Below, in pieces: positions 9,783 through 31,563 of a DNA stretch of 32,000 bases. The notes under the pieces were generated by a model. That model had not been told where the DNA came from, searched no databases, and saw nothing but the letters and a program-made list of their open reading frames with translations. The first letter of the stretch is position 1. Every line of letters starts with the position of its first letter. Both the position numbers and the translations under genes were made by a program. The stretch spans positions 3,720,001-3,752,000 of the forward strand of contig NZ_CP066018.1 of NCBI RefSeq assembly GCF_016127575.1, given 5' to 3'. The stretch is from Cupriavidus necator. Its GTDB lineage: Bacteria > Pseudomonadota > Gammaproteobacteria > Burkholderiales > Burkholderiaceae.

Positions 9783-10074
9783 ATGTGCCGGCGTGGAGCG
9801 CTATGGGGAAACAGGACTTCTTCGAGGACTGGCTGTTGCGCAGCGCGCAAGGTCTGCAGGTCTCGGCGAGCTTCTGCTTTCCGCAATCGTGGCAGACGTC
9901 CGGCTGCAAGGGGTCGCATCAATAGTGTTGCAGACCAAGACCGCATCCGGCTATTTCGCGCGCCTCGGCTTCGCGCCAATCAACCTTTCTGACCTGCCGC
10001 CTGCCGTAATGCGCTCGCAGGAACTCAACCGTCCCCCAGCCGATGTCGGGACGCTGATGCAAATTGCCTTGTAG
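9783..10074 (+). pseudogene. 5'-truncated second copy of the GNAT gene (codons 52-end), embedded in chimeric ORF 9685-10074
   Basis: CAGVERYGETGLL...MQIAL is identical to the C-terminal 96 aa of the 7970-8398 product. The first 33 codons of ORF 9685-10074 are antisense to the ldhA upstream region and the transporter 3' tail. Confidence 0.8.
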
Positions 10075-10341
10075 TAGCTCGCTCGCAAGTTCATTCGCCG
10101 GAGCGGGCAGCCAGGCGCATTGCGGAACCACGGAGGACGGCTCGCAACGTTGATGTCGATGCAAGAATTTCCACCACGCCAGGGTCATCGCGGCTTTGGC
10201 TTCCTTGACCTTGCTGCCCTATTCCCTTCGAGCGGCTTGAATTTCCCGAAGTCTTCTTCATGCGCCCTGCTCCCGACCGTGGGCTTTTCGGGGAGCGGTT
10301 TAAGCCATTAGCGCGGCACGATTTGAGGCCAACAGCCGTGT

Positions 10342-13611: not shown

Positions 13612-15153
13612 ATGCCGAAACCCCTTTCTCCTGCTTCTGAAACAGCCGGCACCGGACGCCTGCCATACCGAATCGACCTGGAGTTCGCGCGTGGCCTGGT
13701 CTGGTTCCGGCGCGACCTGCGCGCCGACGACCATGCAGCGCTGCACTATGCCCTCAAGCACTGCCGCCAAGTGTGGTGCGTGTTTGTCTTCGATCGCGAA
13801 ATCCTTGACCCGCTGATTGCACGCGGACGCAAGGTCGATCGACGTGTAGAGTTCATCCTGAGGTCGTTAGAGCCGTTACGCAGGACGCTGACCGATGCGG
13901 GCGGCGGCCTGATCGTGCTTGACGATATCGCGCGCGATGCCATTCCCAGGCTGGCGGCCGAACTCGATGCCGATGCCGTCTTCACGAACCACGACTACGA
14001 ACCTGCCGCGAAGCGGCGTGACACGGCCGTGCGTCAGGCACTGGCTTCCGACTCCCGAGTGCTGTTCACATTCAAGGACCAGGTTATCTTCGAGGCTGAC
14101 GAGCTCTTGACCGGCCAAGGCCAGCCCTTCAGCGTCTTCGCGCCGTACAAGAATGCGTGGTTACGCGCAGTGCAGCCGTTCGACCTTCGACCGTATCCAG
14201 TCGACCAGTATCTGGGCGCGCTGGCACCGGTGCCCCGTCAGTATCAAAAGGCTTCGCCGATGCTGCACGATCTCGGCTTCGCTGCCAGCAATCTTGCCGA
14301 GATTGCAATGCCCACGGGCAGTGATGGCGCCCGTGCACTGTTCGATGAATTCATCGACCGCATCGGCGATTATGGCTACCGGCGAGATTTCCCCTCGCTG
14401 CGCGGCCCGAGCTACCTATCGGTACACCTGCGCTTCGGCACGATCTCGATCCGCACGCTGGCGCGAGCCGCGCTTGACGCCGTACTGCGCGGCGGCAGCG
14501 AAAGCGCCGGCGCGGCCGTCTGGCTATCCGAACTGATCTGGCGCGACTTCTATTTCATGATCCTCCACCACCATCCCCGCGTGGCCGACGGCAAGTCTTT
14601 CCGCCCCGAATACGATGCGCTGCAGTGGGTCGACTCTGTCACGGGTGACAAATACTTTCAGGCATGGTGCGACGCTCAGACCGGCTATCCGCTGGTCGAT
14701 GCCGCGATGCTGCAGATCCGCCAGAGCGGCTACATGCATAATCGTCTACGGATGGTGACTGCGAGCTTTCTCGTCAAGGATCTCGGCGTCGACTGGCGAC
14801 GCGGCGAGCAATATTTCGCCGACCAGCTCAATGATTTCGATTTCTCGGCCAACAACGGCGGGTGGCAGTGGGCTGCGTCAACGGGCTGCGATGCACAGCC
14901 GTACTTCCGTATCTTCAATCCGGTCAAGCAATCGGAGAAATTTGATCCACAGGGGCGATTTATTCGCAAGTACTTGCCGGTGCTGGCACAGATGCCGGAC
15001 CAGTACATCCATGCGCCATGGACGGCGCCTGTGAATGTACTGGCTACAGCGGGGGTGAAGCTTGGAGAGAACTATCCACCCCCGATCGTGCAGCACGAAG
15101 TTGCGCGGAAACAGACCCTTGAAAGGTATGCGGCGATAAGGAAATCAATATAG
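13612..15153 (+). CDS. phrB: Deoxyribodipyrimidine photolyase (class I CPD photolyase/cryptochrome family)
   Basis: Family blocks are present: LVWFRRDLRADDHAAL, SYLSVHLRFGTIS, WRDFY, TGYPLVDAAMLQIRQSGYMHNRLRMVTASFLVKDL, NNGGWQWAASTGCDAQPYFRIFNP. The exact start is uncertain because the SD is weak. Confidence 0.9.
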   Translation: MPKPLSPASETAGTGRLPYRIDLEFARGLVWFRRDLRADDHAALHYALKHCRQVWCVFVFDREILDPLIARGRKVDRRVEFILRSLEPLRRTLTDAGGGLIVLDDIARDAIPRLAAELDADAVFTNHDYEPAAKRRDTAVRQALASDSRVLFTFKDQVIFEADELLTGQGQPFSVFAPYKNAWLRAVQPFDLRPYPVDQYLGALAPVPRQYQKASPMLHDLGFAASNLAEIAMPTGSDGARALFDEFIDRIGDYGYRRDFPSLRGPSYLSVHLRFGTISIRTLARAALDAVLRGGSESAGAAVWLSELIWRDFYFMILHHHPRVADGKSFRPEYDALQWVDSVTGDKYFQAWCDAQTGYPLVDAAMLQIRQSGYMHNRLRMVTASFLVKDLGVDWRRGEQYFADQLNDFDFSANNGGWQWAASTGCDAQPYFRIFNPVKQSEKFDPQGRFIRKYLPVLAQMPDQYIHAPWTAPVNVLATAGVKLGENYPPPIVQHEVARKQTLERYAAIRKSI

Positions 15154-15244
15154 CCGTTGCAGATCGCGATTCCGGCTAATGGCGTTCGACCGGCTCGAGC
15201 GCCCTCCACTCCCCGGCTGCTCTCCGGGCCATCGCACTAAGCCA

Positions 15245-16945
15245 CTAGGGCGCGGAAAACGCCGCGCCGATTTGCCGTGCCCGTTTCATCTCGTCGCCGT
15301 GCAGGTAGATCGAGGTGGTCGAGATCGAGGCGTGACGCAGGTTGTCCCTCACTGTCGTCAATTCCGCGCCGCGCGCCAGTGCATGAGTCGCATGAGTGTG
15401 CCGCATCCAGTGCGGGCTCGCCTGCCGCAGCTTGTCGGCGGCGGAAGGGTGATCCGCCTGGATCAAGTCCGCCACTTGCCTGAAGAAGCGCCGCAACACG
15501 CCCCACAGGCGCGTGCCGGTGATGCCACTGGCCGGATCCTGGCCAAGGCCGCCGATCAGTGGGGTATGCGGGTCCCATCGCGCTGGCGTGACTGGCAGGC
15601 CTCGTTCCACCAGATAGCTGTCGAGCGCCAGGCGCGCCAACGGTGGCAGTGCCACCTTGCCAGCCTTGGCTCCTTTGCCAACCAGCTTGAGCCAATGGTC
15701 GCCATGGGGATCGCTTTCAACGTCGCCGAGCGTCGCACCGACGAGTTCGCTGGCGCGCAGTCCGGTGGCGTAGCCGAAGTCCAGCACAAAGCGCAGGCGC
15801 TGGGCCGCCGGGCCGTCCCAGCCATAGGACCATTCGAGGCCGTCAGCAATGGTGCGGATCAGCAGCCATTCGCCTTCCGTGAACGCGTGCGAGCTGTCCA
15901 GCGCCACCGACCGCCCTCCTCCGCGCACCTTGATCCCGGCGAACGGATTGGCCAGCACATAGCGCTGCTGGATCAGCCAGCGGAACATCGCCCCCAGTAC
16001 AGACAAGGCATGGGCGGTGGAGCGCGCCGAGAGGCTGCCGGTGAACGGACGCCAGTCGGGCGAGGTACGTGGTCTCGCTGGCCCTACCCAGCGTTCCCGG
16101 GGCGCCGGTCGCCGCACGAAGCTGCGATAGGCCGTCGCATCCTCAGTGGTCAGCGACGACAACGGCCGTTCGCGCTCGACAATCGCCCACAGGATCAGCC
16201 GCTCGGCCTCTTTGCGATAGGTGCGCTGCGTCGCTGGCGACTCATGCAAGGCCAGCCACGCCTGGATCGCCGCGTAATCGTTGTCCGCATTGAGGGCGCA
16301 GGTCGCGCGCGGCGCGCGGAACTTCCCCCGCGACCCATCCACTTCATGCGGCAGCCGCAGTTGCTCCCATGGCACGACCATGCCCCGCGGCGCCTGCGCG
16401 AGCAGCGCCCGGGCGCGCTCGGTCAGTTGGGGGTGCCGGGCAAAGAAGGCTTCGACCTGTCGGGCCCCGGCCGCGCCCAGGCCGGGGATCGCGGCCCACC
16501 AGCGGCGCCGGCGCGGCACCCGAACGGTCAGTGCCGCCAGCGTGTCGATGCCCTGCGCGCGCAGCGCGGCGACCGTGCGCGGCGCCAGCCACAAGCCGAT
16601 GTCGTCGCTGATTGCCGGTGCCGGCGGCGGCAGCGTACGCAGCGTCTCGATGGCATGGTCCGCTGCCCTGCCCTTCTCCGCCCGCTCGGCCGCGGAAATT
16701 TCAAACAGCGCAGCCAGGTCCTCGCGCTGGCGGCTGCGGGCGTATGCGGCAAGCTGGCGGCGGATGCGCCCGAGGATGCCGCGCGACGACTGGCCCTGCG
16801 CCCGCTCCTCGCCCAGATATCGTGCGACGGCTTCGCGCGTCGTCAGCCCGGCATGCCAGGCGCGCAGCGCGGCGAGTGAGGTGGCATCGGGGAAGCCGGA
16901 TGGCGGGGCCGGTTCCGGCGGGGTCAGGGTCAAGCGAGTTTTCAT
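15245..16945 (-). CDS. Tyrosine recombinase / phage-integrase-family protein, 566 aa with a long N-terminal extension
   Basis: The C-terminal catalytic set is intact: ATGLRASEL (Arg I), GKGAKAGKVALP (Lys), HWMRHTHATH (His-x-x-Arg), LRHASISTTSIYLH (His/Tyr). The ~250-aa N-terminal region contains helix-hairpin-helix-like GIDTLAAL / IPGLGAAGARQVEAF segments. Confidence 0.85.
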   Translation of the reverse strand: MKTRLTLTPPEPAPPSGFPDATSLAALRAWHAGLTTREAVARYLGEERAQGQSSRGILGRIRRQLAAYARSRQREDLAALFEISAAERAEKGRAADHAIETLRTLPPPAPAISDDIGLWLAPRTVAALRAQGIDTLAALTVRVPRRRRWWAAIPGLGAAGARQVEAFFARHPQLTERARALLAQAPRGMVVPWEQLRLPHEVDGSRGKFRAPRATCALNADNDYAAIQAWLALHESPATQRTYRKEAERLILWAIVERERPLSSLTTEDATAYRSFVRRPAPRERWVGPARPRTSPDWRPFTGSLSARSTAHALSVLGAMFRWLIQQRYVLANPFAGIKVRGGGRSVALDSSHAFTEGEWLLIRTIADGLEWSYGWDGPAAQRLRFVLDFGYATGLRASELVGATLGDVESDPHGDHWLKLVGKGAKAGKVALPPLARLALDSYLVERGLPVTPARWDPHTPLIGGLGQDPASGITGTRLWGVLRRFFRQVADLIQADHPSAADKLRQASPHWMRHTHATHALARGAELTTVRDNLRHASISTTSIYLHGDEMKRARQIGAAFSAP

Positions 16946-18447: not shown

Positions 18448-18564
18448 TTGTCACACCTCTTTTCATGAAGATGAAGGATACAGTTTTGCTCATTATCCAG
18501 CATGATAGAGCCTTGCCGGCGCGGAATGACTCCACCGCGCCTACACACTTGAACTCCCACTCGA

Positions 18565-19389
18565 ATGCTGAAACGAACCGTGATGAAGATACGAGCGGCC
18601 CCAGTCTGGCGTTCGCTTGCCGCGGCCTGGCTCGCCGCAGGCGGTCTGCTCGGGACCGCGTCGCACCGCGTGCACGCCGGACAGATATGCGATGCGCCCT
18701 ATGTCCATGACGGCGGACGGATCCGCTTCGAAGCGGACGGATTGACGCCGATGACAACCATTGCCTTCTTCCGCAACGTCAACGACTTCGAGCGCGACCT
18801 TTGCTCGTTCGATCTGGACATCTATTCCAGGTCCGCCCTCCGGCGCTTGATGGGGCCGCCCGTCGAGACCGTGCAGCGTCACCGGCTCGTGATTGACGAA
18901 CGCTCGGGACAGCCAGTCGTGCGCAGCCTCAATGCACGCGTTCAGGCCCACGGCCAGTACACCGAGCTGGTCGGGGAAATGAGTACCAACTCGAACGGAC
19001 TGCTGCTGTATCCGCCGGCGCTGACAGAGGGCCAGGTACTCCCGGCGGAAACGTTTGCGTCCCGCTACGACTTTCGTATTGTGGATCGCCGCACCGGCAC
19101 CACGGTCTCTGATTTCGTTGGTTCCAATGTTCGCCTGACCTTGTCTGAGCGGACGGTGGGTCCGCTGCAGCGCCTGAAGCTTGCCACCGGCACCCTCCTC
19201 TGCTGGCCGATCCGATATACCAAGTTCGTGGATCCTGGCCGCTTTCGGCTGGTCGATACGGATATCGAACTGGAGCCGACGGTGCTCGACATGACCGACT
19301 GGTATTGTCCCGCCCGGCGATTCGTCATGCGCCAGGAAGTTCGCTACAAAAATCAGCACCAGGTTGTCGATGTGGTGGAAATTGAATAG
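18565..19389 (+). CDS. Exported hypothetical protein (signal peptide, four Cys)
   Basis: The N-terminus MLKRTVMKIRAAPVWRSLAAAWLAAGGLLGTASHRVHA-GQ looks like a Sec signal peptide. Amino-acid composition is balanced, unlike the Arg/Gly/Pro-rich antisense ORF 18541-19611. I recognise no family. Confidence 0.6.
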   Translation: MLKRTVMKIRAAPVWRSLAAAWLAAGGLLGTASHRVHAGQICDAPYVHDGGRIRFEADGLTPMTTIAFFRNVNDFERDLCSFDLDIYSRSALRRLMGPPVETVQRHRLVIDERSGQPVVRSLNARVQAHGQYTELVGEMSTNSNGLLLYPPALTEGQVLPAETFASRYDFRIVDRRTGTTVSDFVGSNVRLTLSERTVGPLQRLKLATGTLLCWPIRYTKFVDPGRFRLVDTDIELEPTVLDMTDWYCPARRFVMRQEVRYKNQHQVVDVVEIE

Positions 19390-19452
19390 GGCAGCCGCTG
19401 AAGGGTTTCGCCATTGGAACACCTGCATTGCATAGCGCCAATCTGTGGCGGG

Positions 19453-19476
19453 AAAAAGCGCCCGATCAACGGGCGC
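19453..19476 (-). terminator. Rho-independent terminator candidate for the Bug-family gene
   Basis: On the minus strand, GCGCCCG-TTGAT-CGGGCGC is followed by TTTTT. It lies ~140 nt downstream of the 19612 stop. Confidence 0.5.
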
Positions 19477-19611
19477 AAACGGAGACGACCACGGAGGTAA
19501 AGCAGGCCCGGCTCCAGAAAGAATGTCGCAGCAAACGGCAGCGGGGATAGCAAGGCGGGCCGACATGCCGTCCGGCCCGATGGACACGCCGACTGTCTCG
19601 CCCCCCGTCAC

Positions 19612-20622: not shown

Positions 20623-20990
20623 GCCACCAGTTGTGAAGCATAAGCAGCAAGCCGTGATTCGATGAGGATGAAAGAGGTGAAGGGTGTCGTAAAGCAATAA
20701 ATGGCGAGCGTGCCATCGCGTTTGGTGATGGCCGAATGGTGGCTACGGGGCGGATGGTTGGAAGTGAAGCCATGCAGGATGCATCTGACCCGGCCGGACT
20801 TTCAGGCGCTAACGCCACGCCTGAAGGGATGCGCCAGCCAGGCCTGGCCTGCAAGGCAAGGTTGCCGTCATTGCCCGCGCTGGCTACGCTGCAAGCGTGG
20901 CGCACGCCAGCTTCTGCGTGACGGCCGGCTGGCCGTCCCCGGCCGGCTTGCTCGCCGTTCCTTGCACATATCCTTCCCGGAGATTGCGGC

Positions 20991-21359
20991 ATGGCCATCC
21001 AGCTCAACCACACCATCGTCTTTTCTCACGACAAGAAGGTCTCCGCCGACTTCCTCTGCGAGATCCTCGGACGTCCCCCGGCCGAGCCGTTCGGGCCGTT
21101 TCTCGGCGTGCGGCTGGACAATGACGTGACCCTGGACTTCATGGACGCGGAGGGCGATGTTGCCCTGCAGCACTATGCCTTCCTGGTCAGCGACGCCGAA
21201 TTCGATCAGGGCTTTGCCCGCGTCCGCGCGCGCAACCTGACCTACTGGGCGGACCCGTACCGCCGCCGCCCAGGCGAGGTCAACACCGACGATGGCGGCC
21301 GTCGGATCTACTTCGAGGATCCGAGCAAGCACTTTCTGGAGATCTTTACGAAGGGCTAG
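20991..21359 (+). CDS. VOC-family protein (glyoxalase/bleomycin-resistance/dioxygenase fold)
   Basis: The product is 122 aa. LNHTIVFSHDKKVSADFLCEILG...QHYAFLVSDAEFD...RRIYFEDPSKHFLEI is the typical paired beta-alpha-beta-beta-beta pattern. GGAG lies 8 nt upstream. Confidence 0.8.
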   Translation: MAIQLNHTIVFSHDKKVSADFLCEILGRPPAEPFGPFLGVRLDNDVTLDFMDAEGDVALQHYAFLVSDAEFDQGFARVRARNLTYWADPYRRRPGEVNTDDGGRRIYFEDPSKHFLEIFTKG

Positions 21360-21517
21360 TGTCCTGTCATGAGCCTTTGACGAGACACTGGCGCCCTGCC
21401 ACGCCAGCTCGATGCTTTGCAGCGTTGACTGCGCTTGGTTGATGCGGTTGCACCCCATAGAATGAAGTTGCGCCTTGGAAAGCGGCTCTGGTTTCTGCCG
21501 CATCAAAGGAGGATGTC

Positions 21518-22042
21518 ATGGAACTTCATATGCAATCGCATCGCTACGCGCACCGGTGGCCGGACTGGCGTGCGGCGGCGCTGGCGGGCCTCGTCGCCGG
21601 GGTGGTATTCCTGGTGCTCGACTTGCTGGCGGCCATGCTGATGGGGGCCAGCGTCTGGAAGCCGCTGACCATGATCGCGGCCATCATGCTGGGCCCTGAT
21701 GTGCTGGCGCAAGCTGCCACCTTCCAGATGAGCGTGCTGGTAGCGGCCGTGGTGGTCCACTTCGTGCTCTCTGTCGTGTTCGCGGTGATCCTGGCAGCGA
21801 TCATGGCGCCGTTCCGTTTCGATTCGAGCGTCGGCATGGCCTCGGTGGTGGGGGCGCTGTTCGGCCTGGTCCTGTACCTGGTCAATTTTCACGGCATGAC
21901 TGCCGTCTTCCCATGGTTTGCCGAAGCGCGAGGCTGGGTGACCGCCATTGCCCACATCGTGTTCGGCCTGGTCGCGGCTGACTCGTATCTGAAACTGGAG
22001 CGGCACGTGGATGCGTCCGCCGGCGGAACTGGCGGTACCTAG
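21518..22042 (+). CDS. Hypothetical integral membrane protein (about four TM segments)
   Basis: A strong SD (AAAGGAGGA) spans 21505-21513. Four hydrophobic stretches are visible (LAGLVAGVVFLVLDLLAAML, LTMIAAIML.., VLVAAVVVHFVLSVVFAVILAAI, VVGALFGLVLYLV / VTAIAHIVFGLVAA). Confidence 0.7.
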   Translation: MELHMQSHRYAHRWPDWRAAALAGLVAGVVFLVLDLLAAMLMGASVWKPLTMIAAIMLGPDVLAQAATFQMSVLVAAVVVHFVLSVVFAVILAAIMAPFRFDSSVGMASVVGALFGLVLYLVNFHGMTAVFPWFAEARGWVTAIAHIVFGLVAADSYLKLERHVDASAGGTGGT

Positions 22043-22836: not shown

Positions 22837-22866
22837 TAGTGCCGCCTCCTGTGCCCTGTCCAGGCG

Positions 22867-25800
22867 CTACGCCTCTATGTAGCCCTTGCGCAGTTTCTCC
22901 GCCACCAGCTTGTCCGCCTCGCGCCGTGCCCGCTCGGCGCTGTCGAAGGTCTTCACGCTGGTCTGCCCTGTGCTGCCGATGCGGCCGTAGGTGACGGAGA
23001 GCTCCGCCCCGCGTACGCTGGCACGCCAGAACTTGCGCGATGTGCCCTGTTCGAAGCGCAGGCTCCGAACCAGTTCCGCTTGCGCAGCCGATGCCGTCGC
23101 CGCGTCCGTCCGGGCCTCGCCCGTTGACGCCGGATCCTGCGCCGCGGCCGGCTTCGCCAACGGCACCGGCATCTCGACCTCCACGTCCAGCGCGCGATCC
23201 TCGCCATCGGCCAGCATGGCCTCGATGCGGGCCAGCACCGCGTCCCGATCGTCGAGCCAGTCCTTGCCGGGGATGTCCAGCACCAGCCAGCCGAAGCCGC
23301 GCAGGACGCCGGGGCGGAACACATAGCGCTCGGCGGTGTCCGTCACCGGCTCGGACGGCGCATCGAGCAGGATCGCCAGCGCGTAGCCTTGTCCCGACGG
23401 ATCGGCGATGGCCAGGTCGCAGCGGAACTGCGAGCGGCCGACGTTGGCGTGCACCTGGTGGCCGCGCGCACGCAGCGCCTCGGCCAGTGCGTCGCGGACG
23501 CTGTCCGGCGTGGCCTCGCGCGTGAAGGCGTCGCGCGCGCCGGGGTTCAGCGCGCCGAGCACCGACTGGGCGCGTTCGAACTGCCCGCGCGCGCTGGCCT
23601 GCGCGAACTGCAGGAACGCACGCAGCGCGGCCGCGCCATCGTTGTGCACGTTGGTGATCGCCTCGGCCTGGATCGTCGACACCACCGCCATCCGATGGCG
23701 CGCGCGGCTGAAGATCACGTTCAGCCGCTTCTCGCCGCCGCGCTGGTTGATCGGGCCGAAGTTCATCAGCATCTTGCCGTCCGGCCCCGGCGCGTAGCAG
23801 ATGCTCAGGATGATCACGTCGCGCTCGTCGCCTTGCACGTTCTCCAGGTTCTTGACGAACAGTCCGTTGAACTGGTCGTCGTCCTCGCGCACGTACTCGC
23901 GCTCGAGGCGCATCGCGAAGTCCGCGTCCTCGGCGGCCAGCGCCTCGAGCGCGGACTCGATGGCGCCCTGCTGCGCCTCTGAAAACGCCACGATGCCCAG
24001 GCTCAGCCCGGTCTCGCGCCGCAGCAGCTCGCGCACGGTCCGGGCGATGTAGTTCGCCTCCTGCGCATTGCGGCGCTCCGCGTAGACGCCGTCGGCCAGC
24101 CGGTGGAAGCTGACCGGCCGCGCCAGCAGCGCGTCGGCGCCCGCGATGCCGGCATCTTCCTGGTCCGAACGCAGCGCAGGCGCCTCGTCCTCGGCCTGCT
24201 CCAGCAAACGGTCGGGAATGGTGACCAGGCGTCCGTCGTAGAACGCCGCGTTGGAAAAGCTGATCAGCGACTCGTGACGGCTGCGGTAGTGCCACGCCAG
24301 CAGCGTGGCGGGCAGGTTGCGCGCGGCCTGGTTCAGCAGGCTGTCCGAATCGAGATTGATCGCGATGCGCTCGCCCTCCTCTTCCACGACGATCTCGTCG
24401 TCGCCCTCGGCACCGCCGGCCGTGAAGAAACTTGTCGGCGGCAGCTGCATCTCGTCGCCGACCACCACCACCTGGCGCGCGCGGCTCAGCGCCGGCACGG
24501 CCTCCTCGGTCGGAATCTGGCTGGCCTCGTCGAAGATCACCACGTCGAACAGATCAGGCGACAGCGGCAGCGTGTCGGACACCGACAATGGACTCATCAG
24601 CCAGATCGGCTTCAGGTCGTTGATGACGAGGCCGGTCTCGTCGTCGCAGAGATCGCGGATCGAGCGGTGGCGCATGCTCTTGCCGAACTCGTGCTCCAGT
24701 TCGCGGCGACCCGTGGCGTATTGTTTCTTGAACGCCTTGCCGTCGGCGTCCAGCATCGTGGCCGACAGCGAGGACACGCGCACGTGCTCGGCAAACTGCC
24801 GGTGCCGCGTGGCGCGAACCACTTGCGCGTTCAGCGCGAGCAGTTCACGCTGCCCTTGCGCCACGGCGCGCGCAGCCTGCGCCAGCGCCGCGCCGCCAAA
24901 GCGCGCCAGCACCGGGTTCTCGCGCGTGAGACGGCGCAGTGCCTCATCGGCGACCAGCGCCTCGAGCTGCACCGGTGCGTGATCGAGCCACTGCAGCATG
25001 GCGGCACAGGCGGGGTCGCCCGCATGCACCGCGCGCAACAGCGGCAACAGGTCTGGCAGGTCGTCCAGCGCCTCGCGCAGGTCGCGCAGCAGTTCGGCGA
25101 TGTCGCCGAGGCGCGCATCGGCGGCCAGCGCCAGCCCGTCGCGTACACGCTGCGCGAGCTTCTCCAGCGACTCGCGCGCACCGGCCTCGGCGCGCGCCGC
25201 CGCGACCGGGTCGACAGCCTGGCGCAAGTGCGCGACCAGTTCGCGCGGGCCTGCGCCCGACTGCAGGCGCCGCTCGAGTTCGCCGAGCGCGCGCAGGAAA
25301 GCCCGCATCTCGCCGACCCCGTAGCGGCGGCGGCTGTCGGCATCGGCCGCCGCCAGCGCGGCGCTCGCGGCGTGCTCAGCGGCCAGCGCTTCCAGCACCT
25401 TGCCGTAGCCCGGATGGACGGCGTGCTTGCCGAAGTCATAGCGGCGCTTCAGTTCGCCGCGCAGCCGCCACCATGCGGGCTGCAGCCAGCGCGCGAACGA
25501 CGGCTCCAGCCGCCGCGCGAGCGCCAGCGCCGATTCGGTATCGCCGGGGCTCAGCTTGTCCTGCCAGTTAGACGTTGCGGCTTGCGCGTCGGCGAGTGCC
25601 TGTGTGCGCGACTCCAGCTCCGCGCGGATCTCGCGCAGCGCGGCTTGCGCCGGCGAGGCCGCGTCGAGCAGGTCCAGATGCGCGGCCAGGCCCGTGTCGA
25701 GCAGCCACTGGCTGTCGGCGGCGATTGCGCGTGCCTGCTCCAGCGCGGTGTCCTGGCCGGTCAGGCTGGCGGTACTGTCGAGCAGCGGGTCGAGCGCATC

Positions 25801-28389
25801 GAACAGCGCCTCGGCGTCACGGCACAGCTGCTCGGCGCGGCCATAGGCGCGCTCGTCGGCCAGCAGTTGCGGCGACAGGCGCGCGAACGGGTGCGCGGCC
25901 AGGCTGTCGACACCGAAGCGCTCGCGCATCGCGCGGTGCACGCGGTGCGCGAGATCGCGCTGACGGTCCCAGGCGGCCAGCGCCGGCAGGCGCTCGCGCA
26001 GCGCAGGCCCTGCCTCGGGCACAGCGGGCAACGCGGCCACGCGGCGCAGCAACGCACGCACGCTGTCGCCGAGTGCCTCGGGCGCGCTGGCCATCGCCGA
26101 CTCGAATGCGTCGATGCGCTGCTGGTATGCGGCCAGCGCCTCGACGACCTGCGTGCGGCGCGCAGCCAGCGCGTCGCCATCGTGCGGCTGCGCGATCCAC
26201 TGCTCGTAGCAGGCACGCAGGTCGGCAATAAAGGCCTTCTTGTCGGTCTGCGAGTCGTGGATCAGGGAGCACAGCGAGTCCAGCCCGCTTTGCTTGAGCC
26301 GGTGGAACACCACGTCGAGCGCGGCGCGCTTCTCGCAGACGAACAGCACGCGTTTGCCGCGGCCCGCGTAGTCGGCGATCAGGTTGGTGATGGTCTGCGA
26401 CTTGCCAGTGCCCGGCGGGCCCTGGATGATGAAGCTGCGCTGGCTGCGCGCGAGGCCGACCGCGGCGTTCTGCGTCGCATCGGCCCCCACCACGTTCCAC
26501 TGCTCGGCCGGTGCGAGCGGCGCGGGCACTTGCGTCTCCACGTCGCGCGGATCGATCGAGAACACGCGGTCGAATGCCGGATTGGCGCCGGGCTCGTCCA
26601 GCAACTGCGCGTAGTCGCGCACCAGCGACATCTTGCGGTAGTTGAAGTTGGCGAGCGTCACCTGCGTCAGGTCCAGGTCCCAGGCATAACGGTGGCCTTC
26701 GGACTCCTCGAGCACGTAGCCCTGGCGCTCGTCGCTTTCCGCGGCGGCGGGGCCGCTCATGTGTGGCTGGCGCGGACCGGCGCCCGGTGCGGCGCCCGCC
26801 TCGAAGCGCTGCGGCAGCTCGCTCGGCCGCACCCAGTGCTCGAACAGCGCGCGTCCCAGCGGCCGGTAGTCGTCCTGCGCATAGCTGTACGGCGGCAGCC
26901 AGCCACCGGTGCGCGCGGCGGCCGGGCCCGGCTTGCGGCGCTGGAACTGCTGCATCCGCTGCAGCGCCTTCTGCCGCACCAGCCGCACCGCGGCCTTGTC
27001 GACCAGGCGCAGCTCCACTGACGGTTCCGAGCGGCGGATCTGCGCGAGGATGCCGGCATGGATCTCCTCGAGCGAGATCTTGCCGAGATCCACCGTCTCG
27101 TCCAGCCGGATGTCGTACAGCTGGCTCAGGTAGTGGCGCAGCACCGGGTTGAACTCGGCCTCGCCGCCCGCGCACTGGATCACGTACTGGTCGCGCACGC
27201 CCTTGCGTTTGACCAGCTCCACCGGCAGCCACAGCAGCGGCGTCACGATGCGCTCGTCCGGCGCCTCCTTCAGGTTGTGCCAGCGCAGGAACGCCACCAC
27301 CAGGCGCAGGTTGCTGAAGCCATACTCGGCGCGGTCGCGGCGGGTCTCGGCGATCAGGCGGTCCAGCGACGCCGGCAGGTAGGGCTGGTCGTCGAAGCGC
27401 AGCCAGCGCTGCAGCGACACCGGCTTGCCCGCCACCAGGTCGGCTGCGAACGGTCCGCCCCAGGTGCAGATATGCTCGGGCCGCACGCTTTCGATCTGCA
27501 GCATCAGCGGCACGCTGGCCACGGTGACGTTGACGCTGACCGCGGTCGGACGGAAATGCAGCAGGCGGTTGCGCCGCGACAGATCGAACAGGCGGTCGCG
27601 CAGGTGCGTGAGCACGGCGGCGCGGCGCGGCGTGGCACCGGTCGTGCCGGCCAGCGCACGCTCGACGTCCAGGCCGAGTGGCTGGTCGCGCCACGTGCGC
27701 AGCCGGGTCGCCAGCGCGGCGACATCGGTGGCGCGGTCGTGGCGGTTGATCTCGGTCATCTCGACGATCACCGCGGCGACGATCGGATGCAAGCGCTCAT
27801 GCAGCAGGAACAGGTTGCGGCGATGCGCCACGAAACTGCGCAGGTCGTCCTCGTCGGCGAAGTCCAGGCCGCAGGCCAGGCTCGCCAGCACCATGCCGAG
27901 CAGGAAGATGTCGCCGATTTCGTCGTGGTGGCCGACGAGCCGTTCCCAGCTGGCCGGGCCGGGCAGGTAGACCGGGCGCGCGACGGGCGCCGTAGCGTCA
28001 AGCTGCAGCGCCAGGTCGGCCTGGTCGCGCTGTCCGTCGTCGGCATGGCCGAGCTGCAGCGCGCCGACGATGTTCAGGCCCGAGGCCGGATGCGGCTGCA
28101 CGCGATGCACCGCGCCGATGTCCATGACGGGCGCCTCGCCATCGGGCCGGCGCAGGCGCAGCGCCCCATCCTCGTCCACCAGGATGCTGTCGCGATCGAG
28201 CGCGGCCACCCTGCCCTGCGCGTGCAGCGTGGCAACCTGCGCGAACAGCGGCAGCACCAGCACCAGGACGTCGTCGGTGGGCAGCGCCGCGCCCGCCTGC
28301 GCCTCGATCAGGGCGCGCAGCATGCGCGGCTCCCCGCTGCCGGTCATATCCGGAATGGTATTGGTGCCGTGGGTCGTGCTGTCAGTCAT
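22867..28389 (-). CDS. 1,840-aa multidomain protein: kinase-like N-domain / DUF4011-like region / Upf1-like SF1 helicase (AAA_11+AAA_12 type) / restriction-endonuclease-like fold / C-terminal WGR domain
   Basis: ATG at 28389 (MTDSTTHG..) follows GGGAGGG and overlaps the upstream stop (ATGA). Motifs:
- LFDLSRRNRLLHFRP (DUF4011-type)
- Walker A IIQGPPGTGKSQT (~26398-26424)
- VVIFDEASQI and VVVGDEMQLPP (~24470-24545)
- WHYRSRHESLISFSN
- NVQGDERDVIILS and GEKRLNVIFSRARHRM
- GRSQFRCDLAI..LAILLD..FGWLVLDIPGKDW
- KFWRASVRGAELSVTYGRIGSTGQTSVKTF..KLRKGY. Confidence 0.9.
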   Translation of the reverse strand: MTDSTTHGTNTIPDMTGSGEPRMLRALIEAQAGAALPTDDVLVLVLPLFAQVATLHAQGRVAALDRDSILVDEDGALRLRRPDGEAPVMDIGAVHRVQPHPASGLNIVGALQLGHADDGQRDQADLALQLDATAPVARPVYLPGPASWERLVGHHDEIGDIFLLGMVLASLACGLDFADEDDLRSFVAHRRNLFLLHERLHPIVAAVIVEMTEINRHDRATDVAALATRLRTWRDQPLGLDVERALAGTTGATPRRAAVLTHLRDRLFDLSRRNRLLHFRPTAVSVNVTVASVPLMLQIESVRPEHICTWGGPFAADLVAGKPVSLQRWLRFDDQPYLPASLDRLIAETRRDRAEYGFSNLRLVVAFLRWHNLKEAPDERIVTPLLWLPVELVKRKGVRDQYVIQCAGGEAEFNPVLRHYLSQLYDIRLDETVDLGKISLEEIHAGILAQIRRSEPSVELRLVDKAAVRLVRQKALQRMQQFQRRKPGPAAARTGGWLPPYSYAQDDYRPLGRALFEHWVRPSELPQRFEAGAAPGAGPRQPHMSGPAAAESDERQGYVLEESEGHRYAWDLDLTQVTLANFNYRKMSLVRDYAQLLDEPGANPAFDRVFSIDPRDVETQVPAPLAPAEQWNVVGADATQNAAVGLARSQRSFIIQGPPGTGKSQTITNLIADYAGRGKRVLFVCEKRAALDVVFHRLKQSGLDSLCSLIHDSQTDKKAFIADLRACYEQWIAQPHDGDALAARRTQVVEALAAYQQRIDAFESAMASAPEALGDSVRALLRRVAALPAVPEAGPALRERLPALAAWDRQRDLAHRVHRAMRERFGVDSLAAHPFARLSPQLLADERAYGRAEQLCRDAEALFDALDPLLDSTASLTGQDTALEQARAIAADSQWLLDTGLAAHLDLLDAASPAQAALREIRAELESRTQALADAQAATSNWQDKLSPGDTESALALARRLEPSFARWLQPAWWRLRGELKRRYDFGKHAVHPGYGKVLEALAAEHAASAALAAADADSRRRYGVGEMRAFLRALGELERRLQSGAGPRELVAHLRQAVDPVAAARAEAGARESLEKLAQRVRDGLALAADARLGDIAELLRDLREALDDLPDLLPLLRAVHAGDPACAAMLQWLDHAPVQLEALVADEALRRLTRENPVLARFGGAALAQAARAVAQGQRELLALNAQVVRATRHRQFAEHVRVSSLSATMLDADGKAFKKQYATGRRELEHEFGKSMRHRSIRDLCDDETGLVINDLKPIWLMSPLSVSDTLPLSPDLFDVVIFDEASQIPTEEAVPALSRARQVVVVGDEMQLPPTSFFTAGGAEGDDEIVVEEEGERIAINLDSDSLLNQAARNLPATLLAWHYRSRHESLISFSNAAFYDGRLVTIPDRLLEQAEDEAPALRSDQEDAGIAGADALLARPVSFHRLADGVYAERRNAQEANYIARTVRELLRRETGLSLGIVAFSEAQQGAIESALEALAAEDADFAMRLEREYVREDDDQFNGLFVKNLENVQGDERDVIILSICYAPGPDGKMLMNFGPINQRGGEKRLNVIFSRARHRMAVVSTIQAEAITNVHNDGAAALRAFLQFAQASARGQFERAQSVLGALNPGARDAFTREATPDSVRDALAEALRARGHQVHANVGRSQFRCDLAIADPSGQGYALAILLDAPSEPVTDTAERYVFRPGVLRGFGWLVLDIPGKDWLDDRDAVLARIEAMLADGEDRALDVEVEMPVPLAKPAAAQDPASTGEARTDAATASAAQAELVRSLRFEQGTSRKFWRASVRGAELSVTYGRIGSTGQTSVKTFDSAERARREADKLVAEKLRKGYIEA

Positions 28390-29591
28390 GCCCGGCCCTC
28401 CCTGGCCAGTTCGCGGTGGAGTTGGCGCTGGTAGCGGTCCAGCTCGCGCTTGCCGAAGCCGGCGTCGCGGCGCAGGTTGCCATGCAGCGCTTCCAGGCTG
28501 CCGAGCGCCTGCGCCACCTGGCCGGCGCGCAGCAGCGCCGCGTCCTGCTGGTCGGGGTCGGCGAGCGCCAGGTCCATCATCAGCGCGTTGAGGTAGCCGC
28601 GCACGCTGTCGTCGGCCACGTCCGGCCCCAACCCCTCGGGGCCGATCGCTGGTTCGTCGTCGCGCCAGTCGGGGAACATCATGCGCACTTGCGCGAGTAC
28701 TGCCTCGCTCGCCAGCGGCGTGCCGGCGAGGAAGTGGGCCAGGAAGCCGCGCGTCAGCGCCTGCAGGCGGATCTGTCCCGGCAGGTCCAGCTTCTCCAGC
28801 GCCAGCGGGCCGTGCAGCCGGGTTTCGATCCATGGATCGAGATCGGCCGCGCCCTCCCACCACAGCGCCAGTGCGCGCGCCCGGATAAAGGTCTCGGGAT
28901 GGCTGTGGGCGGCGCTCGCGCCCGCTTCGTGGGCCTCGATCTCGGCCGCCTGGCGCAGGTAGGCGGCCGCGTCCACGCTGCCGATGCCGGTCTGCACCTT
29001 GACCAGCGTCGACACGGCCGGCGCCACCGCACGGGCGGCCACGGCGCCGCCGCGGTCGGCGAACAGCTCGGTGTGCAGCGCGTAGCGGCGCCAGGTCTCG
29101 CGATGGCTGGCGCTGGCGCCGGGCGCGGCCAGCGCGTCGTTCAGGATGCGGTCGGCCACCAGGAACTGGCCGTCGTCGCGCGACCACAGCAGGTAGTGGG
29201 CCAGTTCGTGGCCGAACACCGCCAGCAGCTCCGGCGGCGACAGCCGATCCAGCAGCGGCCCCTGCAGGATGATGTGGACCTCGCCCGGCACGTAGACCAG
29301 CGACGCGTTCATGTCATGGCCCGGCGACTGGTAAAGCGTCGCGGGGGCGTCGATGCCGAGGCGCGCCATCGCCTCGGCCAGCGCCGCGTGCACGTCGGCA
29401 TGTGCGTCCGCCTCGAGGCGGTAGGTGTCGCGCAGCAGCATCGAGCGCAGTGCCTCGCGGTGATCGGCGCCGGTCGCGCGGGCGCCGGCCCAGCGCCAGA
29501 CCTCGGGCTCATGGCGGCGCAGGTAGTCGACCACCGTTGCGTGATAGGCAAGCGGCACCAGCGCGCCGCGATCCGGGGCGTGAGAGTCCAT
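28386..29591 (-). CDS. M48-like zinc metallopeptidase, predicted cytoplasmic (401 aa)
   Basis: HELAH lies at 29196-29210 (aa 128-132). Downstream are HTELFADRGG (aa ~173-182) and SHPETFIRARAL. Together these are the HExxH / ExxAD / HP..R set seen in HtpX/BepA/Ste24-type M48 peptidases. I see no hydrophobic TM segment or signal peptide. The C-terminal ~170 aa look helical. Confidence 0.8.
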   Translation of the reverse strand: MDSHAPDRGALVPLAYHATVVDYLRRHEPEVWRWAGARATGADHREALRSMLLRDTYRLEADAHADVHAALAEAMARLGIDAPATLYQSPGHDMNASLVYVPGEVHIILQGPLLDRLSPPELLAVFGHELAHYLLWSRDDGQFLVADRILNDALAAPGASASHRETWRRYALHTELFADRGGAVAARAVAPAVSTLVKVQTGIGSVDAAAYLRQAAEIEAHEAGASAAHSHPETFIRARALALWWEGAADLDPWIETRLHGPLALEKLDLPGQIRLQALTRGFLAHFLAGTPLASEAVLAQVRMMFPDWRDDEPAIGPEGLGPDVADDSVRGYLNALMMDLALADPDQQDAALLRAGQVAQALGSLEALHGNLRRDAGFGKRELDRYQRQLHRELAREGRA

Positions 29592-29952
29592 GCGGGACGT
29601 TCCAGGGTTGCGTGGAAGCCGATTCTACAGGGGGAGCATGGCGTTGGCGCCGTCCATCAGCGCGGGCAATGCCCGCACTGGCCTGGCGAGCATGACGTTG
29701 TCGGGAGCAGTTGGAGGCGGGGATGCCGGCGCGAGAAGCGGCTGATGGCTGAAGCTGTTGGTTTGGGTGGGCGGCTGATACGCCGCAAGTTTGTTTCTGC
29801 CCAACATTTACTCCGCCAGCCGGGCGGAATTCGCTGATGACGGGGCTGCGACTCCATTTTTGTCGGTCCGCATCCGGTGGCACAGCTTCTGCGTATAAGC
29901 GAGAGGACGCCCGCCGCGTTCTGCCCTCCTTACCGCAAATCGGAGTACCGCC

Positions 29953-30336
29953 ATGATCCGCCAGCTCGCCAACACGATCTTCGCCACCGCCGCGATTGCA
30001 GTCGCCTGCACTGCCGGCATTGCCCATGCCGCCGCCCGCGACAGCGCTCCTGCCGGCGACAAGTCCGGCTACACCTTCCGCATCGACATGCGCGACGTCT
30101 ATAGCGAAGCTGCGCGGGCCGGCCGCTTCGACGTCTTCATCGACGGTACTCGCGTTGAGGCTTCACCCGTCAACGAGCAGTCCGTTTCCGGCCTCGACCG
30201 CAGTGGCGTGTCGGCCGACCCTGCCCGCAAATTCGACATCTACACCGACGGCGCGCTGGCCGGCATGGACCGCAGCGGGGTATCGGCAGATCCCGCGCGC
30301 AAGTTCGACGTCTATACCGATGGCGCCTTGGCATAA
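29953..30336 (+). CDS. Small secreted protein (127 aa) with DRSGVSADPARKFD[IV]YTDGALA repeats
   Basis: An SD (CGGAG) lies 7 nt upstream. The signal peptide is MIRQLANTIFATAAIAVACTAGIAHA-AA. There are two 22-aa repeats plus a degenerate third (GRFDVFIDGTRV). Hairpins lie downstream. Confidence 0.75.
   Translation: MIRQLANTIFATAAIAVACTAGIAHAAARDSAPAGDKSGYTFRIDMRDVYSEAARAGRFDVFIDGTRVEASPVNEQSVSGLDRSGVSADPARKFDIYTDGALAGMDRSGVSADPARKFDVYTDGALA
30196..30333 (+). repeat. Two 66-nt coding repeats separated by 6 nt (30196-30261 and 30268-30333)
   Basis: A codon-by-codon comparison shows 14 differing codons out of 22. Thirteen are synonymous and one is Ile/Val. Confidence 0.85.
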
Positions 30337-30390
30337 GCCCGTGCATAGCAAGCCTGCCTCAGGCAGGCAGCCATCGTCAAACGCGCTTAC

Positions 30391-30437
30391 GCGCCCTTTG
30401 GAACGTATTTCTCCCGGCTCCGAAGGGCGCTTTTTTT
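30391..30437 (+). terminator. Rho-independent terminator candidate after the small secreted-protein gene
   Basis: GCGCCCTTTGGA (30391-30402) pairs with TCCGAAGGGCGC (30419-30430) with one G-U pair, and is followed by TTTTTTT (30431-30437). A second hairpin, GCCTGCC-TCA-GGCAGGC at 30352-30368, lacks a T-tract. Confidence 0.6.
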
Positions 30438-30453
30438 CTGGCCGGAGCCCGCG

Positions 30454-31563
30454 TCAGCCCAGCTCGGGGTAGTCGACGTAGCCGTGCGCACCGTTGCCGC
30501 CGTACAGCGACGCGTCTTCAAACGGACGGTTCAGCGGCTTGTTTTCGCGGAAGCGGCGCGGCAGGTCGGGGTTGGTGATCATCTTGCGGCCGAACGAGAC
30601 CATGTCGGCACTGCCACGGCGAATCGCCTCTTCGGCCATCTCCTTGGAGTAGCCGTTGTTGACCATCCATACGCCGGTGTACAGGCGGTGCAGCGCTTCA
30701 TAGTCGAACGGGGCGTTGTCGCGCGGGCCGCCGGTGTGGCCTTCCACGACATGGATATACACCGGATGCAGCTTCTCCAGTTCACGCACGACATATTCGA
30801 ACAGTGGCTGTGGGTTGCTCTCCAGCGCGTCGTTGACGGGCGAGACCGGCGCCAGGCGAACGCCGACCCGGTCGGCACCAATCTCCTTAACCACGGCAGC
30901 CATGACTTCGAGCAGGAAGCGCGCGCGGTTTTCGATGCTGCCGCCATACGCGTCGGTGCGATTGTTCGTGCCATCGCGCAGGAAGGCGTCAAGCAGGTAG
31001 CCGTGCGCGCCATGGACTTCGACACCGTCGAAGCCGGCCTGGACGGCATTGGCTGCAGCGGTGCGGAAGTCGTCGACAATACCAGCGATCTCGGCCGTCT
31101 CGAGCGCGCGCGGGACCGAGCATTCGACGTAGCCTTTGCCATTGATATAGGTCTTGGCATTGGCAGCGATGGCCGACGGTGCGACCGGGGCCTGGTTGTC
31201 CGGCTGGAAGTGCGTGTGCGACATGCGGCCGGTGTGCCAGATCTGCAGGAAGATCCTGCCGCCCTTAGCGTGGACCGCATCGGTCACCTTCTTCCAGGCA
31301 GCAATCTGCTCGGGGGTGTAGACGCCCGGCGTATTGGTGTAGCCCTGGGCAGTGGTCGAGACCTGGGTGGCTTCAGCGATGATCAGGCCTACGCTGGCGC
31401 GCTGGCTGTAGTACTCGACCACCATGTCGGTCGGCACCAGGTTGTCGTCGGCCCGGCTGCGCGTGAGCGGCGCCATGGCCATGCGGTTGGCCAGTTCGAG
31501 CTTGCCCAGCTTGATTGGCTGGAACAGCGCGTCGGCGAGGAAGGCTTCGTTCTGTACACCCAT
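30454..31563 (-). CDS. nemA: Old Yellow Enzyme-family NADH:flavin oxidoreductase / alkene reductase (N-ethylmaleimide reductase-like)
   Basis: The 369-aa product is colinear with NemA-type OYEs. Shared blocks include MAPLTRSRA, YYSQRASVGLIIAEATQVS, PEQIAAWKKVTDAVHAKGG, LQIWHTGR, FDGVEVHGAHGYLLDAFL, RTDAYGGSIENRARFLLEV, ANPDLPRRF and GYVDYPEL. GGAG lies upstream. Confidence 0.9.
   Translation of the reverse strand: MGVQNEAFLADALFQPIKLGKLELANRMAMAPLTRSRADDNLVPTDMVVEYYSQRASVGLIIAEATQVSTTAQGYTNTPGVYTPEQIAAWKKVTDAVHAKGGRIFLQIWHTGRMSHTHFQPDNQAPVAPSAIAANAKTYINGKGYVECSVPRALETAEIAGIVDDFRTAAANAVQAGFDGVEVHGAHGYLLDAFLRDGTNNRTDAYGGSIENRARFLLEVMAAVVKEIGADRVGVRLAPVSPVNDALESNPQPLFEYVVRELEKLHPVYIHVVEGHTGGPRDNAPFDYEALHRLYTGVWMVNNGYSKEMAEEAIRRGSADMVSFGRKMITNPDLPRRFRENKPLNRPFEDASLYGGNGAHGYVDYPELG

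Follow-up and report, generated by a model that had tools for sequence, protein, structure and literature searches.

Why does a gene for an M48-type zinc metalloprotease run directly into a gene for a helicase of 1,840 amino acids (aa), and what might the two products do together? The question is raised by a locus of Cupriavidus necator lying in a 32,000-nucleotide (nt) stretch of contig NZ_CP066018.1 (positions 3,720,001 to 3,752,000; hereafter the window, in whose own numbering its features are given). A prediction made from the letters of the window alone (the original prediction) had described the two genes as a translationally coupled operon and as a candidate surveillance or defence system. 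The comparisons described below show that the protease and the helicase are a unit in at least three bacterial phyla.

The protease and helicase genes are linked across phyla

The cassette consists of the following features.

28386-29591, minus strand: gene 1, an M48-type zinc metalloprotease of 401 aa (Pfam Peptidase_M48, AlphaFold2 model)
22867-28389, minus strand: gene 2, a DUF4011/Upf1-like superfamily 1 (SF1) helicase of 1,840 aa (Pfam domains)
28386-28402, minus strand: coupling junction, comprising a GGGAGGG Shine-Dalgarno sequence (28396-28402) and the ATGA stop/start overlap (28386-28389)
22863-29634, minus strand: whole cassette including a 5' leader of about 43 nt (extent of shared DNA homology)
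29622-29627, minus strand: a −10-like TAGAAT within the CCTGTAGAATCGG motif, about 30 nt 5' of the protease ATG (putative promoter element)

Both open reading frames (ORFs), their coordinates and strand, the overlap and the GGGAGGG sequence were found as the original prediction had them, and so were the motifs that it quoted (HELAH, ELFADR, SHPETFIRAR, LFDLSRRNRLLHF, GPPGTGKS, DEASQ, GDEMQLPP, YRS, QGDERD and RLNVIFSRAR). As read from the sequence, the TGA of the protease gene (28388-28386) overlaps the ATG of the helicase gene (28389-28387) as ATGA, and the GGGAGGG is located 7-13 nt 5' of the helicase ATG.

The distribution of the pair was examined by a scan of one genome per species, in which 356 of about 185,000 species had a relative, and the 80 best loci were analyzed. 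These loci belong to alpha-, beta-, and gammaproteobacteria, with helicase identities of 51-96%. Helicase homologues of about 1,830 aa with 60-94% identity occur in these three classes, and the best relatives are 92-96% identical. An M48-like gene was present directly upstream of the helicase gene and on the same strand in 79 of the 80 loci; the exception was a contig that starts inside the helicase gene. The stop and start codons overlapped in 73 of the 79 loci, mostly by 4 nt (65 loci) and otherwise by 13 nt (7 loci) or 8 nt (1 locus), and the coupling of the two genes thus exceeds chance. Gaps of 1-3 nt separated the genes in four loci, and the protease gene was interrupted in one Pseudomonas locus.

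Members from Chitinophagales (Bacteroidota) and Micrococcales (Actinomycetota), whose helicases show 34-45% identity in the N-terminal 640 residues, also have an overlapping M48-like gene upstream (2/2). Across loci, the identities of the protease and the helicase to the window copies co-varied (r = 0.97). No third gene was conserved across contexts. Among 72,556 plasmid records, the protease matched the same 14 records as the full-length helicase, all of them 2-Mb megaplasmids of Ralstonia solanacearum/syzygii, and it was found in none of the 519 plasmid records carrying paralogous DUF4011 helicases. Furthermore, 80 metagenomic loci with DUF4011 helicases were scanned with a protease profile built from 80 family proteases. 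This profile and a profile of the kinase-like domain at the N terminus of the helicase matched the same three loci only, in all of which the two genes abut (3/3), and no protease was detected in the 46 other metagenomic loci having at least 1.5 kb of upstream sequence. The coincidence of both profiles in the same three loci indicates that the protease and the N-terminal domain are gained and lost jointly. The claim that the M48 partner is obligate was therefore strongly borne out across phyla (79/80, 3/3, and 2/2 loci against 0/46 and 0/519 paralogue loci).

The CCTGTAGAATCGG motif was retained in the Cupriavidus, Burkholderia, Herbaspirillum, Collimonas, and Viridibacterium loci despite their differing upstream flanks. 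Because a simple σ70 scan gave no canonical −35/−10 pair at TAGAAT, this sequence is regarded only as a putative promoter element. A consensus scan of the operon ends likewise found no canonical promoter or terminator, only the conserved −10-like motif.

Two variations on this arrangement were observed. In three Duganella/Massilia loci (L009, L022, and L072), the protease start is within a few bases of the stop of the upstream gene and the TAGAAT leader is missing; the pair may be co-transcribed with the upstream gene in this clade. In the Pseudomonas sp. OHS18 locus (L080, about 8797-10000), the M48-like frame is broken about 235 nt before the helicase start, and this protease gene is possibly a pseudogene, which would make the locus a natural protease-less variant.

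The protease retains its catalytic motifs

The following features of the protease were assigned.

29196-29210, minus strand: HELAH zinc-binding and catalytic motif (H128, E129, H132), invariant in 30 homologues
29055-29069, minus strand: ELFAD, with the third zinc ligand E175 and the AD of the M48 ExxAD motif (E175, A178, and D179 invariant in 30 homologues)
28893-28904, minus strand: SHPE motif (S230-E233), with H231, P232, and E233 invariant in 30 homologues
28389-28844, minus strand: C-terminal all-helical domain, residues 250-401 (helices 251-400 in the model)

Residues 64-241 of the protease matched positions 4-182 of the 186 positions of Peptidase_M48 (PF01435) with 37.3 bits, above the gathering cut-off of 20.3. 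HEL[AST]H is kept in the Bacteroidota, Actinomycetota, and metagenomic members, and across phyla the ELFAD region reads TExx[AC]DRG and SHPE reads [ST]HPE. The retention of these motifs from Proteobacteria to Bacteroidota and Actinomycetota argues that catalysis is under selection; judged by its motifs, the protease is catalytically intact.

The AlphaFold2 model of the protease (predicted local distance difference test score [pLDDT] 87) consists of an M48-like catalytic domain followed by the all-helical C-terminal domain. Its best Foldseek neighbors were BepA, ZMPSTE24, and minigluzincins, all of them weak (E values of 0.03-0.4, low template modeling [TM] scores). There was no sequence match in the PDB, and the viral structure library yielded weak fold matches but no significant one. 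No signal peptide or membrane segment was found in the protease, and the maximum 19-residue Kyte-Doolittle mean was 1.23. Since a hydrophobic segment is lacking, the protease is expected to be soluble. The prediction of a soluble M48-like peptidase without a membrane anchor thus agrees with both the Pfam score and the hydrophobicity profile. A SprT-like Pfam match over the HExxH region was weak (E = 0.005) and below threshold, and no PADLOC model matched the protease.

The helicase combines an intact motor with degenerate kinase-like and nuclease-like domains

The domains and motifs of the helicase are as follows.

27685-28332, minus strand: N-terminal kinase-fold domain, residues 20-235 (AlphaFold2 pLDDT about 90, Foldseek)
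27127-27594, minus strand: DUF4011 domain, residues 266-421 (Pfam, 52.6 bits)
26398-26421, minus strand: Walker A motif GPPGTGKS, residues 657-664, unchanged in both near and remote family members
24580-26199, minus strand: helical insertion of about 540 aa in helicase domain 1A, residues 731-1270, between two AAA_11 stretches
23665-24579, minus strand: helicase motifs II-VI, residues 1271-1575, with DEASQ at 24517-24531 (Pfam AAA_11 and AAA_12)
23215-23490, minus strand: Vsr-type restriction endonuclease (REase)-like domain MTES_1575, residues 1634-1725 (Pfam, 50.7 against 38.2 bits)
23356-23373, minus strand: degenerate nuclease site ILLDAP (alignment with three ProA-like proteins)
22873-23061, minus strand: C-terminal WGR domain, residues 1777-1839 (Pfam PF05406 at 1781-1839, 60.7 against 22 bits)

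DUF4011, AAA_11, AAA_12, MTES_1575, and WGR all exceeded their Pfam gathering scores, and Foldseek supplied the kinase-like part, so that the domain order in the original prediction (kinase-like/DUF4011/Upf1-like helicase/REase-like/WGR) stands.

AAA_11 (68.2 bits) and AAA_12 (59.0 bits) covered the stretches 637-703 and 1350-1571, with the large insertion between the halves. Since the two Pfam halves each exceed their threshold and none of motifs I, II, III, V, and VI is missing, the Upf1-like SF1 motor is complete, as had been predicted. GPPGTGKS, DEASQ, GDEMQLPP, QGDERD, and RLNVIFSRAR were invariant in close and distant members, and the nearest solved structures by PDB sequence matches were IGHMBP2, Upf1, Sen1, and DNA2. 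DUF4011 is the most conserved segment outside the motor (majority fraction 0.85), with a ratio of nonsynonymous to synonymous substitution rates (dN/dS) of 0.05-0.12. Among the large segments, the insertion of about 540 aa is conserved least (0.66), but its dN/dS of 0.09-0.16 indicates purifying selection, and it is in register with the ProA model. Purifying selection (dN/dS 0.04-0.3) acts on all domains, the two degenerate ones included; the only exception was one noisy value over 92 codons.

An AlphaFold2 model covering helicase residues 1-640 was confident for residues 20-235. In Foldseek searches, this part matched PKMYT1, PknB, CDK2, and JAK3 over about 215 columns with E values of 5e-5 to 1e-3 and a probability of 1.0. 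The kinase-like assignment is therefore supported at the level of the fold. On the other hand, no Pfam kinase match was obtained in the helicase, and the catalytic residues are absent: in a manual register to the kinase subdomains, no HRD Asp, catalytic Asn, or DFG Asp was conserved in the family. The domain starts at about residue 20, where one short strand and a helix precede an αE-like helix, and no N-lobe was modeled. The conserved kinase-like pattern is LH..G[RK]VA.L...D.IL....G.L.L.xPDG. What the domain does retain is an APE-like Glu149, together with a subdomain-IX-like Asp160 (DIFxLG) and a C-terminal cluster of Arg residues. The domain is thus predicted to be a C-lobe-only pseudokinase that is unlikely to be catalytic and that is likely to serve as a protein-docking surface. 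In the model, a low-confidence linker (residues 239-302) separates it from DUF4011. The N-terminal module is common to at least 236 clusters at 50% identity.

The predicted nuclease-like fold was recovered by MTES_1575 above threshold, but the catalytic Glu and His of ProA-like proteins are lost from it. When 10 family members were aligned with three ProA-like proteins, the GVECDGA..YH of the paralogues was replaced by ILLDAP in all 10. The first nuclease Asp (FRCDL) is kept, the Glu is changed to Leu and the YH is lost in 10/10, and the second Asp is also missing in one. The change of Glu to Leu is found in the distant low-GC group as well. Because the catalytic Glu and His are lost, the nuclease fold is probably inactive; the catalytic residues were taken from the family pattern and the Vsr assignment (PMC3710099).

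The WGR tail was above its Pfam threshold as predicted and matched PDB 2ra8 (E = 1.7e-12), but it proved to be optional. It is fused to the helicase in 69 of the 80 loci and is missing in the Variovorax clade and in one further locus (L043). Its absence from the Variovorax clade suggests an accessory part. WGR domains bind DNA breaks in poly(ADP-ribose) polymerases, and bacterial WGR proteins are found in DNA-damage regulons, namely MolR (LexA) and DR2173 (DdrO/IrrE) (PMC8533742).

The pair differs from the named anti-phage helicases

The original prediction had pointed to Mokosh as a described system with a related helicase. The PADLOC scores of the helicase placed other systems closer: PDC-S37 scored 698 bits and Hhe 322.6 bits, compared with 115 bits for MkoA and 70 bits for MkoC. 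Among the NCBIfam models, ProA (NF058533) scored 707 bits against a cut-off of 1500, and Hhe (NF042953) scored 464.7 bits against 2000. The comparison with Mokosh is accordingly corrected in favor of ProA/PDC-S37 (about 700 bits) and Hhe (323-465 bits). The matches to ProA, PDC-S37, and Hhe are confined to helicase residues of about 570-1760. Residues 570-1764 align with positions 577-1742 of the 1903 positions of the ProA model, and the match to PDC-S37 covers positions 215-1360 of 1550; the best stretch of the Hhe NCBIfam model corresponds to residues 1140-1726.

A DUF3320 protein from a Paracoccus plasmid scored 2100 bits on ProA (positions 1-1903) and covered the whole PDC-S37 model, and plasmid proteins from Salinibacter and Comamonas likewise cover both models. 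These full-model scores indicate that ProA, PDC-S37, and the DUF3320 helicases are one family. A paper defining the name ProA was not found in the literature, including PMC12642450 and PMC13069673, and the family is characterized here by NCBIfam and PADLOC scores and example loci only.

ProA resembles the window helicase in having DUF4011, a split Upf1-like core with the same insertion, MTES_1575, and a similar length (about 1,900 aa). It differs in its N-terminal 390 aa, which are without the kinase-like domain, and in its C terminus, which is a DUF3320 winged-helix region instead of WGR; DUF3320 is a tandem winged-helix (PMC3710099). ProA also keeps the ECDG..YH nuclease site, where the window helicase has LLDA. 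The ProA-like paralogues lack an M48 partner and are found on plasmids beside CRISPR-Cas and transposases. On plasmid pTT13-4 of Paracoccus yeei (locus L083, 10058-10321), an independent gene for an 87-aa WGR protein comes after the ProA gene and is read from the other strand, from which it appears that WGR associates with this helicase superfamily both fused and separate.

Hhe is described as a one-gene system that combines helicase and nuclease domains and confers defence on E. coli (bioRxiv 10.1101/2024.10.10.617714). It shares with the window helicase a DUF4011 SF1 helicase and a C-terminal nuclease fold, the motor and nuclease matching at 323-465 bits. Hhe acts alone and presumably depends on its nuclease, whereas the window helicase has a degenerate nuclease site and an obligatory protease partner. 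Mokosh has a Upf1-like COG1112 core, and MkoA/MkoC match residues of about 1273-1577, but only the 2A half of the motor matches. The window pair lacks a phospholipase D (PLD) nuclease and an MkoB-type partner, and DUF4011, kinase-like, WGR, and M48 components are all missing from Mokosh.

BepA and the minigluzincins abylysin and selecase have the same gluzincin core of HExxH and ExxAD as the window protease, and in BepA this core is also followed by an all-helical domain, with a low TM score only. BepA is periplasmic and acts on outer-membrane proteins, whereas the window protease has no signal peptide and a helicase as its genetic partner. SPRTN/Wss1 with FANCJ, IrrE, ImmA, and CapP are functional analogues only, in which a metalloprotease is coupled to nucleic-acid sensing or unwinding. 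SPRTN/Wss1, IrrE, ImmA, and CapP share no homology with the window protease beyond the zincin motif; the latter is an M48 member without a conserved substrate gene.

With a protease that has no PADLOC match and a helicase below the ProA and Hhe NCBIfam cut-offs, the pair matches no named system, in line with the original prediction, which had recognized none. By its sequence, it forms a lineage of its own within a known superfamily of anti-phage helicases and falls in neither named family.

A core gene pair flanking the defence hotspot cDHS1 in P. aeruginosa, which encodes a small hypothetical and a large DUF4011 protein (Johnson et al. 2023, PMC10250203), probably contains another paralogue and was not used. 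The 120 best relatives of a family member from Pseudomonas included none from P. aeruginosa.

The cassette is bounded and varies in its surroundings

The guanine-plus-cytosine (GC) content of the cassette is 70-75%, compared with 60-65% in the flanks. DNA homology of 86-95% to nine other loci labeled Cupriavidus or Ralstonia starts and stops within a few bases of the cassette ends, and the flanks of the cassette are common only to one strain (L019). The GC difference and the ending of the homology to Cupriavidus loci at the cassette ends make the earlier description of its codon usage as native doubtful. No terminal direct or inverted repeats of at least 9 nt were found at the cassette ends, and no integrase or transposase adjoins the pair. 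The Xanthomonadales copies (69-74%) are nearer to the Cupriavidus copy than are those of Variovorax (52-54%) or of a second Cupriavidus lineage (70%). Within Pseudomonas and Ralstonia, the pair has a patchy distribution.

The locus of CP158803.1 (L018), labeled Ralstonia pickettii RAL3, encodes a helicase 96% identical to that of the window, and its flanks are common with loci of Cupriavidus necator, C. numazuensis, and C. pinatubonensis. This record may be taxonomically mislabeled, or the region may have been transferred recently.

In Collimonas sp. NPDC087041 (locus L010, 12781-17003), a complete Gabija system (GajA of 784 aa and GajB of 624 aa) is situated 120 nt 3' of the helicase gene on the same strand. 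On megaplasmids of Ralstonia solanacearum (L082, 15738-21575; L084, 13732-19569), a gene for a duplicated UvrA paralogue of 1,945 aa follows the pair in the same orientation after about 225 bp; this adjacency is confined to one synteny group.

Within the window, the following were observed outside the cassette.

4130-4984 and 6366-6968: a fragment of an IS66-family transposase and an aldehyde dehydrogenase cut short after about 120 of 461 profile positions
8107-11337: DNA duplicated perfectly in tandem with a period of 1,676 bp (100% identity reported over 300 nt)
8666-9661 and 10342-11337, minus strand: two copies, identical to each other, of a gene for a 331-aa D-2-hydroxyacid dehydrogenase, yielded by the duplication
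13612-15153: DNA photolyase gene, about 8 kb from the cassette and not linked to the pair in other loci
15179-16879, plus strand: 566-aa ORF following the photolyase gene, without a Pfam match; an equally long antisense ORF lies at 15245-16945
18541-19611, 20868-21506, 21503-22006, and 29996-30472: flanking ORFs without a Pfam match; counterparts were found in L019 only for all of these except 18541-19611

The IS66 fragment is 18 kb from the cassette. The surroundings suggest a decayed, variable region of the genome.

Possible roles of the protease-helicase pair

The preceding results allow a working model to be proposed. The helicase lineage would share a common origin with Hhe and ProA/PDC-S37. 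Its Vsr-type site would have decayed, the pseudokinase domain would have been added, and an M48 gene would have been placed upstream with translational coupling, giving a two-gene module that is inherited and transferred as a unit and encodes a helicase-coupled protease. The two proteins would be produced in a fixed ratio and form a complex, with the protease docking on the pseudokinase domain; this docking site is suggested only by the co-occurrence of the protease and the pseudokinase. The helicase would load on DNA and track along it, and the WGR (where present) and the dead nuclease fold would act as DNA-binding or DNA-structure-sensing modules. A triggering nucleic-acid structure would then license the protease, so that a protein rather than DNA would be cleaved: the effector would have been swapped from a nuclease to a protease. 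Protein cutting is the probable output, given the loss of the nuclease site and the gain of the dead-kinase domain. A physical complex, its docking site, a DNA (not RNA) substrate, a protease target, and the biological role are what we infer.

Surveillance of foreign or aberrant DNA in a conflict or defence setting is tentatively proposed as the single most likely role. It is favored because of the ancestry shared with Hhe and ProA and because of the transferability and patchy distribution of the cassette. Several findings weigh against it. A scan of the two nearest ORFs per side, based on crude ORF calls and PADLOC v2 (2023) only, covered 192 nearest-neighbor ORFs in about 53 contexts and revealed a clear defence system at one locus only (the Gabija of L010). 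A few other neighbors gave isolated PADLOC matches, and the rest were metabolic, regulatory, or transport genes, such as those for LysR regulators, transporters, SecA, and ribonucleotide reductase. These data argue against a defence-island lifestyle, in line with what had been noted for the genes flanking the cassette in the window. Among the 72,556 plasmid records, the pair was on no true plasmid, the Ralstonia 2-Mb megaplasmids being its only carriers; it was not found in phage records either, which gave only four distant helicase matches. Helicases of different classes are 60% identical over 1,840 aa, an unusual degree of conservation if the pair serves in defence, no domain showed diversifying selection, and synteny is stable within Variovorax, Lysobacter, Sphingomonas, Duganella, and most Cupriavidus. 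No experimental data on any family member were found in the searchable literature.

Several of these properties would fit a role in genome maintenance, in which the helicase delivers the protease to crosslinked or tightly bound proteins on DNA, including stalled topoisomerases and other roadblocks, comparable to SPRTN/Wss1 with a helicase or to FAM111A. The cassette is chromosomal and not in an island, and it shows genus-level synteny, housekeeping-grade conservation, and purifying selection throughout. The combination of an ATPase/helicase with a protease and no working nuclease, the DNA-break-binding character of WGR and its presence in bacterial DNA-damage regulons (PMC8533742), the weak SprT-like match at HExxH (E 0.005), and the UvrA paralogue (1,945 aa) that follows the pair in the same orientation in Ralstonia solanacearum point in the same direction. 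However, no LexA box was detected upstream of the operon in 77 loci using beta/gamma, alpha, and Xanthomonadales consensus sequences. The pair is also rare (356 of about 185,000 species) and patchily carried within genera, the UvrA adjacency occurs in one synteny group only, the SprT match is under the Pfam threshold, and the closest named relatives are anti-phage systems. Genome maintenance is thus considered possible but somewhat improbable. Narrower, and rather unlikely, is the proposal that the pair is a dedicated bacterial protease for DNA-protein crosslinks or roadblocks, built on an anti-phage helicase-nuclease scaffold with its nuclease off and convergent with SPRTN/Wss1 plus helicase or with FAM111A.

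Alternatively, the protease may be a regulator and not the effector. It may process the helicase or remove part of it, for instance by an activating cut in the disordered linker after the pseudokinase, or it may, in the manner of IrrE-DdrO, ImmA-ImmR, and CapP-CapH, pass on a signal by cleaving a repressor or another regulator when DNA damage or invasion is sensed by the helicase. Metalloproteases that are activated by DNA damage and cleave repressors are an established paradigm. The exclusive occurrence of the protease with the extra N-terminal domain and the low-confidence linker 239-302 between the pseudokinase and DUF4011 would suit such a function. It remains doubtful, since there is no conserved third gene, such as one for a repressor substrate, and since the helicase, once activated, would still be without an obvious effector, its nuclease site being degenerate. 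In addition, IrrE, ImmA, and CapP are of the M78/COG2856 family, whereas the protease belongs to M48.

That the helicase is an ordinary Hhe or ProA/PDC-S37 member with an incidental protease upstream is very improbable: despite its strong partial PDC-S37, ProA, and Hhe matches and the same DUF4011, AAA_11/AAA_12, and MTES_1575 backbone, it scores 707 against 1500 and 465 against 2000 bits where a true ProA scores 2100, matches over residues of about 570-1760 only, differs at the N terminus and carries WGR instead of DUF3320 at the C terminus, has lost the nuclease Glu and His, and has the protease in 79/80, 3/3, and 2/2 loci compared with 0/46 and 0/519 paralogue loci.

Significance for the helicase superfamily

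Hhe and ProA are recognized as anti-phage DUF4011/Upf1-like helicase-nucleases whose mechanism is poorly understood. Nature has in effect run an experiment on that scaffold in the lineage represented in the window: the nuclease is lost, the protease is obligatory, and the pseudokinase occurs only with the protease. The system is tractable, as it comprises two genes with clear point mutants (HELAH and Walker A) and is carried by genetically manipulable bacteria, including Cupriavidus, Burkholderia, Ralstonia, Pseudomonas syringae/tolaasii, and Caulobacter. If its role is the removal of DNA-bound proteins, the pair would bear on whether bacteria own dedicated DNA-protein-crosslink proteases. If the complex functions in the proposed way, the pair would constitute a protease guided by nucleic acid, a kind of output that has not been described for helicases of this family.

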